Of a stretch of 64,000 bases of DNA, positions 30,313 to 31,050 are shown piece by piece (the first letter of the stretch is position 1; each line of letters begins with the position of its first letter). Position numbers and translations under genes: made by a program. The DNA is from Kiritimatiellia bacterium. Lineage in GTDB: Bacteria > Verrucomicrobiota > Kiritimatiellia > RFP12 > UBA3636. Location of the stretch: positions 1,506 to 65,505 of the forward strand of contig JAZNPC010000060.1 in the NCBI GenBank assembly GCA_045589455.1, in the 5' to 3' direction. Under the pieces are notes generated by a model. The model did not search any database and was not told the DNA's origin. It saw nothing but the letters and a program-made list of their open reading frames with translations.

Positions 30313-31050
30313 ATGAAAATAAAAAACTTTGTAAAAATATCAGCTTTTGCGATTCTTGTATTTTCAATGCTAGGATGTGGCAAAGAAGAAGAGAAAGAAA
30401 ACGAGTTGAAGAGCGAAATATTAGAAGAAAAGATTGAAGAAAAAGAGATAACAGTAGCAGGCATAGAGATGGTTAAGATACCAGATAGTGCTGAGCATAA
30501 AGGTCTTTACTTTGGTAAATACGAGGTAACTCAGGAGCAGTGGCAAGAAATCATGGGAGATAATCCATCGTATTTCAAAGGCGATTTATCTCTCCCTGTA
30601 GAGCAAGTTTCTTGGGATGACTGTCAGGAGTTCATTGAGAAACTTAATGCACGTACAGAAGTAAAGACGTCAGGAATTACATTTAGACTTCCAACAGAGG
30701 AAGAGTGGGAGTATGCTTGCCGAGCAGGAAGCAAAGGTATATATGGTTTGCTAGCAGATGGGCGTGAAGGCACAATAGACGAGATGGGCTGGTATATGGA
30801 TATGGATAATTCTGATGATAAGACACATCCAGTAGGGCAGAAGAAGCCAAATGCATGGGGGTTATACGATATGCATGGCAATGTGTGGGAGTGGACTGCG
30901 TCGGCTGATGGTTCTGGCCGTATTAGCCGTGGTGGTAGCTACTGTCTTGTTCCGTCTATCTGCGTTTCGGATAGCAGGTGCTGGCTCAATCCCGATAGCA
31001 GGTTCAGCAGCCTCGGCTTTCGCCTCGCTGCCTCTAGGACAGCAAAATAA
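30313..31050 (+). CDS. Lipoprotein with an FGE-sulfatase (SUMF1 / C-type-lectin-fold) domain; candidate DGR variable protein
   Basis: Lipobox SMLGC. FGE-domain motifs YEVTQEQW, VSWDDCQEF, RLPTEEEWEYACRAG and GLYDMHGNVWEWT. C-terminal RGGSYxxxxSxCxSDxRxWxxPDxRxxxLGFRLA block. Confidence 0.85.
   Translation: MKIKNFVKISAFAILVFSMLGCGKEEEKENELKSEILEEKIEEKEITVAGIEMVKIPDSAEHKGLYFGKYEVTQEQWQEIMGDNPSYFKGDLSLPVEQVSWDDCQEFIEKLNARTEVKTSGITFRLPTEEEWEYACRAGSKGIYGLLADGREGTIDEMGWYMDMDNSDDKTHPVGQKKPNAWGLYDMHGNVWEWTASADGSGRISRGGSYCLVPSICVSDSRCWLNPDSRFSSLGFRLAASRTAK

Follow-up and report, generated by a model that had tools for sequence, protein, structure and literature searches.

How did a gene that carries a variable block of the kind diversified by diversity-generating retroelements (DGRs) come to stand without the hairpin module that follows the other genes of its family, with a complete module lying upstream of it instead? 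The question is raised by a 64,000-nt stretch of a Kiritimatiellia bacterium (GenBank assembly GCA_045589455.1, contig JAZNPC010000060.1, positions 1,506 to 65,505 of the forward strand), called here the window. The gene (30313-31050) encodes a predicted 245-aa lipoprotein with an FGE-sulfatase domain and lies between a UDP-glucose dehydrogenase gene and a DUF3127 gene. We conclude that it is probably a member of a dispersed family of DGR-target cassettes, present at this site as a permuted 1,866-nt unit joined through a 19-nt core.

Permuted cassette order at the UDP-glucose dehydrogenase/DUF3127 site

The features of the locus, all on the + strand, are the following:

29178..29196, +, left copy of the 19-nt direct repeat (core) AAAATAAACTGTGCTAAAT, bounding the insertion on the UDP-glucose dehydrogenase side
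29178..29301, +, complete orphan module, 84-93% identical to 59969-60089 and 62718-62838
29204..29251, +, hairpin 1 of the orphan module by folding, with outer stem GGAGGC...GCCTCC, inner stem GCGGTGC/GCACCGC and a 9-nt A-rich loop
29253..29301, +, hairpin 2 of the orphan module, an intrinsic terminator by terminator scan and folding, GTTTTTCAACCC-loop-GGGTTGAAAAAC followed by a T-run
29302..30239, +, repeat-rich spacer moving together with the cassette, homologous to cassette-flanking spacers in L009, L016, L013 and L017
30240..30269, +, cassette promoter TTGACA-18-TACAAT, TG-extended, kept in L009 and L017
30313..31050, +, predicted FGE-sulfatase / C-type-lectin-fold lipoprotein of 245 aa (open reading frame (ORF), Pfam and structure match)
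30907..31011, +, variable region of 35 codons, recognized by its codon-position pattern, with 16/37 inferred template adenines kept
31011..31043, +, GC-rich invariant 3' end of the variable region, resembling an initiation of mutagenic homing (IMH) sequence, CCTCGGCTTTCGCCTCGCTGCCTCTAGGACAG plus C, found after every terminal variable region
31044..31062, +, right copy of the 19-nt direct repeat, a perfect match to the left copy, with the stop codon (31048-31050) inside
31078..31128, +, resident intergenic terminator hairpin TTGGGTTTTGC...GCAAAACCCAA plus T-run by folding, unchanged in empty-site relatives

Loci of relatives were collected from many samples through exact matches to the DUF3127 protein (31436..31810) and the ABC ATPase (24153..24866) of the window, and their source names place the related contigs in a ruminant-gut Kiritimatiellae lineage. 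A database look-up with the window UDP-glucose dehydrogenase and protein P0003 gave no match. The collected loci show four kinds of allele at the site:

L001, L002, L003, L008 and L026, empty allele: UDP-glucose dehydrogenase, ...GAAAGAAAAATAAACTGTGCTAAATCAATAC..., terminator and DUF3127, with the 19-mer once and nothing else
L004 and L028, different resident gene: a 232-aa FGE gene with a variable region of a second type, whose ATG overlaps GAAAAATA-ATG and which ends ...ACAGCAAAATAAACTGTGCTAAAT-CAATAC, without module
L027 (other sample, SRR24653883), window-like left junction: flank, core and a module with the window-specific GGCGCAGC variant, the contig breaking inside the module
L007, gene 3' end only, joined to the right flank

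The flanks of the window site are 97-99% identical to those of the five empty alleles. Homology to them ends at 29199/29200 and resumes at 31035, which identifies the intervening DNA as an insertion; it measures 1,866 nt between the perfect 19-nt direct repeats at 29178-29196 and 31044-31062. The 14-mer AAACTGTGCTAAAT has two exact occurrences in the window, against 0.12 expected. The right copy had been described in a first-pass annotation, made from the DNA sequence alone, as about 15 nt of the 3' module kept behind the gene. The shared sequence is there (AAAATAAACTGTGCTAAAT); however, it is not a truncated module and forms, together with the stop codon, one copy of the perfect direct repeat. 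The same annotation had the gene switch to an unrelated terminator, and the hairpin proper, at 31078-31121, is indeed unrelated to the module and now lies 3' of the variable gene. Two right-flank haplotypes are found among the relatives, each both with and without a gene, and therefore gain or loss has occurred at least two times.

The 245-aa protein has its closest homologue in P0002 (80% identity, same long linker, same promoter), whose gene stands in canonical order in L017, downstream of a 5S rRNA gene. Window positions 30172-31061 map to L017 512-1392 and window positions 29169-29439 to L017 1367-1635, so that both pieces are contiguous there with a 26-nt overlap at the core, and the L017 module and post-module sequence is 96.7% identical to window 29169-29439. 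L016 and L013 map the window pieces likewise. Furthermore, a composite of the window gene end and the orphan module is colinear with four canonical cassettes, with 96.7-97.4% identity in module and post-module sequence. The window pieces are a circular permutation of the canonical cassette order: as their contiguous mapping in canonical cassettes indicates, a single cassette has been opened at the core, with the orphan module as one of its ends and the module-less gene as the other. The full module that had been noticed about 1.1 kb upstream of the gene is complete at 29178-29301, and the suggestion that synteny in relatives might connect it with such a gene was borne out, since gene end, core, module and post-module sequence are contiguous in L017, L009, L013 and L016.

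Variable region, protein and module of the cassette family

Two further copies of the variable region lie in the window and served as comparators:

59832..60089, +, variable region, GC-rich end, core and module of a 226-aa gene, by sequence comparison
62581..62838, +, variable region, GC-rich end, core and module of a 795-aa two-domain gene, by sequence comparison

The block at 30907-31011 aligns without gaps with 59832-59936 and 62581-62685, which bears out the initial description: a lipoprotein gene standing by itself, remote from the other two, carries a third variable region of the DGR type. Of the 36 block columns that vary among the three window copies, only 3 fall at codon position 3, as against 13 of the 17 variable columns in the 100 nt 5' of the block. 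The other 33 of the 36 columns, at codon positions 1-2, are compatible with a template adenine, the comparison being one among paralogous variable regions and not against a template repeat. When seven further distinct copies from relatives are added, all highly variable columns fit an adenine in a common template, whose inferred block pattern is GGTGGTAGCTACTATAATAATGCGTCTAACTGCGAGTCGGATAACAGGAACTGGAACAATCCCGATAACAGGAACAACAAC. The ten distinct variable regions keep only 32-59% of the inferred adenines (12-22 of 37 per copy, 16/37 in the 30.9-kb copy) and are otherwise nearly clean. Because variation at codon positions 1 and 2 is the adenine-mutagenesis signature of DGRs, we assign the block to the DGR-type variable regions, and the substitution pattern suggests that 30907-31011 was written at some time by adenine-specific mutagenic retrohoming. 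The putative IMH-like stretch, CCTCGG(C/T)TT(C/T)CGCCTCG, stands after every terminal variable region, 32-33 nt ahead of the core. The GC-rich end had been reported as common to the 30.9-kb, 59.8-kb and 62.6-kb copies, and CCTCGGCTTTCGCCTCGCTGCCTCTAGGACAG is present in all of them.

A second type of variable region (R-I/V-S-C-G-G ... C-x-A-D ... C) occurs in the same gene family, in L004 (7100-7210) and in proteins P0025, P0041 and P0020; this second sequence type indicates at least one more template-repeat family in these bacteria. In L007 (1-200, compared with L004 7065-7262), a variable region of the window type is joined to a 3' end of the L004 type (CGGCGGTGCTTAGTACAG), and the switch falls exactly after the GC-rich CCGCCTCG, as would be expected if retrohoming had hit a foreign target or if the IMH-like stretch had served for recombination. 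In addition, the two-domain FGE proteins contain an internal, degenerate block resembling a variable region (window 61254-61860; L013 7181-7330, minus strand; L020 12632). These internal blocks have the GC-rich end without core or module, carry indels and non-adenine changes, and look like decayed former targets.

The window itself contains neither the donor template nor the reverse transcriptase. Sliding the inferred template along the window returned only the three variable regions, with nothing above 50% elsewhere, and no reverse-transcriptase motif was found in a real ORF of the 64 kb. A pattern scan of genome contigs returned five loci, all of them variable regions, and no reverse transcriptase was found beside five other targets. 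Viral contigs gave 0 matches to the exact inferred-template pattern and to a looser one, metagenome contigs 0 matches to a combined variable-region/template pattern, and both collections 0 matches to the module pattern. A peptide query derived from the inferred template matched nothing but ORFs that resemble template repeats of other DGR families. In the window, the related loci and the collections, no cognate template repeat and no DGR-clade reverse transcriptase was found, 6 kb of the contig and the rest of the genome being unseen.

FGE-sulfatase is the sole Pfam domain in the 245-aa protein (residues 63-239, E=1.9e-33), and its best match among solved structures is TvpA of Treponema denticola (2y3c, E=4.8e-24). 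The variable segment of TvpA (2y3c residues 253-292) aligns with residues 200-240 of the 245-aa protein, whose variable region is the C-terminal part of the C-type-lectin/FGE-fold domain, as in DGR targets. The N-terminal hydrophobic signal ends ...SMLGC (MKIKNFVKISAFAILVFSMLGC), which, read from the translation, is lipobox-like with an atypical M at -3. The near-consensus promoter TTGACA-18-TACAAT that had been attributed to the gene scored 11/12 with a TG extension. The nearest homologues of the protein are 80-81% identical and are all encoded at other loci. Elsewhere in the collections searched, neither the identical protein nor a closely similar variable region was found, and a search with the C-terminal 68 aa returned nothing close. 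Among the proteins inspected, the locus-specific ...TAK tail is otherwise present only in the L004 protein.

Modules of the family fold far below shuffled controls in general (z = -6 to -11.5), and the fold of 29179-29301 has -30.8 kcal/mol and z = -6.0. We aligned the hairpins of the orphan module with those of 11 other modules (12 cassettes). Hairpin 1 is a perfect 20-bp palindrome only in L009 (TTGCTTGC); in 11 of the 12 cassettes it consists of stems of 6 and 7 bp broken by a non-complementary inner segment of 8-9 nt, with a loop of 7-9 nt. The inner 8-9 nt of the 5' arm (G-N-AGCAAGC; window 29210-29218) are, in the same proportion of cassettes, a direct and not an inverted copy of the 3'-arm segment. 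In L012 (3907-4170) and L014 (515-815), CC>TA changes weaken pairing in the inner stem. None of the 26 predicted pairs shows a compensatory change in the 12-module alignment, because the module copies are too similar, and no known RNA family reached the Rfam gathering score in module or spacer.

The order gene, GC-rich end, 19-mer-like core, hairpin 1 and terminator has a fixed spacing in 10 of the 10 other distinct cassettes, which occur in four downstream contexts. Constant order and spacing in different contexts indicate that the module belongs to the 3' end of the gene and not to the neighbouring DNA. The canonical cassette, as the comparison of these copies shows, comprises a repeat-rich spacer, a strong promoter, the FGE lipoprotein gene with its variable region and IMH-like end, a stop codon in a core of about 19 nt, a long hairpin and an intrinsic terminator. 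The 30.9-kb gene had been described as a target without the hairpin module. The module is absent there, unlike in the 10 other cassettes; however, the gene is not without a downstream stem, since a different GC-containing one lies 35 nt past the GC-rich end, where hairpin 1 of canonical copies lies at 26 nt.

The spacer of the window contains nested 110-nt direct repeats (29420-29530 and 30039-30158) that bracket a block of about 510 nt missing from the L013 spacer. FGE cassettes are flanked by a dispersed non-coding repeat family with CGTCT-type repeats and GGACGCAGAG motifs, without Rfam match, which was seen in the window at 29302-30239, 62950-63800, 1-52 and 14211-14487, and in L009 at 5835-6640 and 7560-8400.

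Origin of the permuted order and state of the targets

The most likely route to the permuted order starts with homologous recombination between cassette-flanking spacer repeats, or between array neighbours, which would set free a circle or a unit of the array. The permuted unit (module, spacer, promoter, gene and variable region) would then be inserted by recombination at the short core. Joining through the core duplicates it at both ends; the cassette's own hairpin and terminator now lie 1.1 kb upstream of the gene, and the gene ends on the terminator resident at this site. Circles or array units do have a source, as spacer copies are found on both sides of the L009 cassette and the locus 3' of the PEPCK gene holds one, two and three FGE cassettes in L019 (9168-11400), the window (58540-62838) and L020 (9168-15100), respectively. 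Past the cassettes of the PEPCK locus synteny breaks, and acetate kinase, GH94 or AraC-type genes follow.

Several observations weigh against this route. No circular form, recombinase or integrase was seen, the Pfam assignments of the window ORFs being ribosomal, restriction-modification and housekeeping genes only. Both 19-mers carry the extra A typical of the site (TAAACTG), versus TAACTG or TAATCTG in canonical cassettes, and the gene-side junction (ACAGCAAAATAAAC, ACAGC) recurs in L004 and L007, whose resident gene is another one; neither is expected from one reciprocal crossover with a typical donor. Such a crossover is further complicated by L027, where the three bases left of the core match the 3' end of the resident gene. 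Moreover, 19 nt is short for RecA-dependent recombination. The DGR assignment itself is drawn from the variable regions; window, fetched loci and collection scans yielded neither template repeat nor reverse transcriptase.

The extra A, the gene-side junction and the L027 bases fit another history, in which a cassette inserted behind a resident gene, the site then held a tandem array of resident gene, core, module, spacer, promoter, present gene and core, and the upstream gene was later lost by slippage between short repeats so that only core and module remained in its place, the empty and single-gene alleles being further deletion products. It would account for a resident gene of L004 and L028 that starts exactly at GAAAAATA-ATG and ends ...ACAGCAAAATAAACTGTGCTAAAT with the gene-side junction of the window, for the bases AGTACAG left of the core in L027, which are the 3' end of the resident gene type, and for right-flank haplotypes in which gene gain or loss took place at least twice; tandem arrays, besides, exist at the PEPCK locus. 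We nevertheless regard it as rather unlikely. A resident gene followed by a module was seen in no contig, the AGTACAG signal amounts to only three nucleotides that could stem from gene conversion between repeat copies, and the left flank holds no remnant of another gene, its local alignment score being under the shuffled mean. It also still needs an initial insertion at the core, and so refines the insertion of a permuted unit rather than replacing it. That the permuted order is an assembly artefact, a chimeric join through repeated cassette sequence, is hardly credible. Cassettes, modules and spacers each occur in several copies, and many contigs of relatives end within them; however, the shared junction of 19 nt is under usual assembly k-mers, the left junction recurs in the independent sample L027, the right junction type recurs in L004 and L007, and both flanks match the empty-site contigs base for base. 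A junction shorter than typical k-mers, with both junction types present in independent samples, makes misassembly unlikely.

Ordinary recombination among repeats explains the cassette architecture, the allele series and the displacement of the module, and dedicated mobility at the core is possible but unsupported. The proposal that DGR targets are mobile cassettes, each a unit of promoter, gene, variable region, core, hairpin, terminator and spacer, which excise as circles and re-insert at the core of about 19 nt just 5' of the hairpin seems improbable to us; the insertion point would in that case possibly be where the DGR machinery or a hairpin-processing nuclease breaks DNA. If this were true, the target-recognition site would double as an attachment site, and arrays of one to three targets, empty sites and permuted copies would be its footprints. 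Retrotransposition of the cassette by the DGR enzyme was considered and rejected, because module and spacer are about 97% identical to canonical copies and their few differences have no adenine bias.

The insertion of a permuted unit leaves a separate matter, whether the module-less copy has ceased to diversify or whether all copies have. According to the first-pass annotation the module is a retrohoming accessory, a cruciform, so that the 30.9-kb copy would be a frozen target while the two module-bearing genes diversify. The module does follow every other terminal variable region at fixed spacing in four downstream contexts and folds strongly (z = -6 to -11), disruption of the downstream hairpin in the Bordetella phage cuts retrohoming >1000-fold (PMC3240598), and the 30.9-kb block has two private changes, GCG>CCG and GAG>GTT, at otherwise invariant non-adenine positions. 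An excess decay of this block was nonetheless rejected, since module-bearing copies have as many or more non-adenine changes (at least 4 in the 62.6-kb copy and 5 in L013), and its adenine retention (16/37) is ordinary. Module-bearing orthologues are, moreover, static: variable regions remain invariant across strains with 0.4-2.7% flank divergence. Protein P0024 has the same sequence in at least 24 contigs, and L019 and L020 share 99.6% identity across 11.4 kb. In L012 and L014, two metagenome-assembled genomes (MAGs) from different hosts, the locus orthologous to the 62.6-kb one has identical variable regions although the flanks diverge by 2.7% and 34 of 1,367 flank and gene positions differ. 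Together with a stem and loop geometry unlike the GRNA-tetraloop consensus, a hairpin without covariation support and a surrogate hairpin 35 nt downstream, this speaks against a selective freezing of the 30.9-kb copy, which we regard as rather unlikely.

It is somewhat easier to conceive, though still short of an even chance, that all copies are fossils, the DGR core being lost or rarely used and the blocks changing only by ordinary mutation and recombination between paralogues. The window, 33 fetched loci and scans of viral, metagenome and species-representative sequences yielded neither template repeat nor reverse transcriptase, the variable regions are identical across diverged strains, several copies carry scattered non-adenine changes, and isolates of Treponema denticola with target genes but no core DGR provide a precedent (PMC4891356). 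Against general fossilization, MAGs and short contigs are incomplete, with 6 kb of the contig and the remaining genome unseen, and in more distant strains the 62.6-kb copy of the window and L012 do differ at adenine columns. The retention of only 32-59% of the inferred adenines in ten otherwise nearly clean variable regions also speaks against it.

Remote FGE-fold targets and downstream inverted repeats are already known (PMC5758913, PMC3240598). Additional here are the stereotyped cassette, a series of empty, resident-gene and permuted-cassette alleles at one site, and the module displaced upstream of its gene. The site offers a natural allele series at one chromosomal position, with canonical copies in the same genome. 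If an active reverse transcriptase and template repeat exist, reads of the three variable regions would test the need for the hairpin at remote targets in vivo and with no genetic work, although the gut bacterium is uncultured. Should a DGR core be lacking, nothing more than ordinary recombination between paralogous fossil targets would be left of the finding. As the allele series shows, dispersed DGR targets are hot spots of presence/absence variation and rearrangement, which matters for reading "variable" surface proteins in metagenomes.

The rest of the window contains a ribosomal-protein operon, a DpnII-type restriction-modification system and housekeeping genes. The restriction-modification system (14846-18102) directly follows the ribosomal protein L15 gene and consists of a D12-class adenine methylase, a 178-aa ORF without assigned function, a DpnII endonuclease and a second N6/N4 methylase; copies of the repeat family border it at 14211-14257 and 14441-14487. 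A 507-aa ORF (38208-39731) contains tandem repeats of 165-183 nt (39037-39661) and has no Pfam match.

Comparison with known systems

Gene cassettes of integrons form circles, carry an attC hairpin and insert at a short core. By analogy only, the units described here resemble them as promoter-gene units with an imperfect palindrome at the 3' end and with variable numbers in arrays, and the ends of the inserted copy may be likened to a permutation split next to the palindrome. Unlike integron cassettes, they have their own promoters and long spacers, and their junction is a 19-nt homology that ordinary recombination can explain. No integron integrase was found in the window or in related loci, and GTTRRRY/RYYYAAC core sites are absent from the core and hairpin.

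The target hairpin of the Bordetella phage BPP-1 type has a GC stem of 7-10 bp and a 4-nt GRNA loop and lies 4-34 bp from the variable region (Guo et al. 2011, PMC3240598). As in BPP-1, the Kiritimatiellae cassettes have an inverted repeat shortly 3' of the GC-rich end of the variable region, and it is conserved with the target rather than with neighbouring DNA. In contrast, an internal loop splits their stem into 6 + 7 bp in 11 of 12 copies, the remaining one being a 20-bp palindrome, the apical loop is A-rich and has 7-9 nt (AAATAAAA(A)), and the hairpin starts 26 nt past the GC-rich end, beyond the stop codon. The earlier equation of the module with a Bordetella-phage-type hairpin could not be upheld, as a 20-bp or interrupted stem with a 7-9-nt loop departs from the BPP-1 consensus geometry.

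The nearest parallel to the genes themselves is the DGR of Treponema denticola, which has TvpA and up to seven non-adjacent target genes (PDB 2Y3C; PMC4891356; PMC5758913), and some isolates of which keep targets without a core DGR (PMC4891356). Both systems have lipoproteins, predicted ones in the case of Kiritimatiellae, with an FGE-sulfatase-type C-type-lectin fold and a C-terminal variable region, and in both several targets are scattered far from any reverse transcriptase. They differ in phylum (Kiritimatiellae) and in that the core DGR was not located here. Furthermore, unlike the targets of Treponema, those of Kiritimatiellae belong to a stereotyped cassette that has a promoter, a core, a long hairpin, a terminator and repeat-rich spacers of its own, and one copy of this cassette is permuted.

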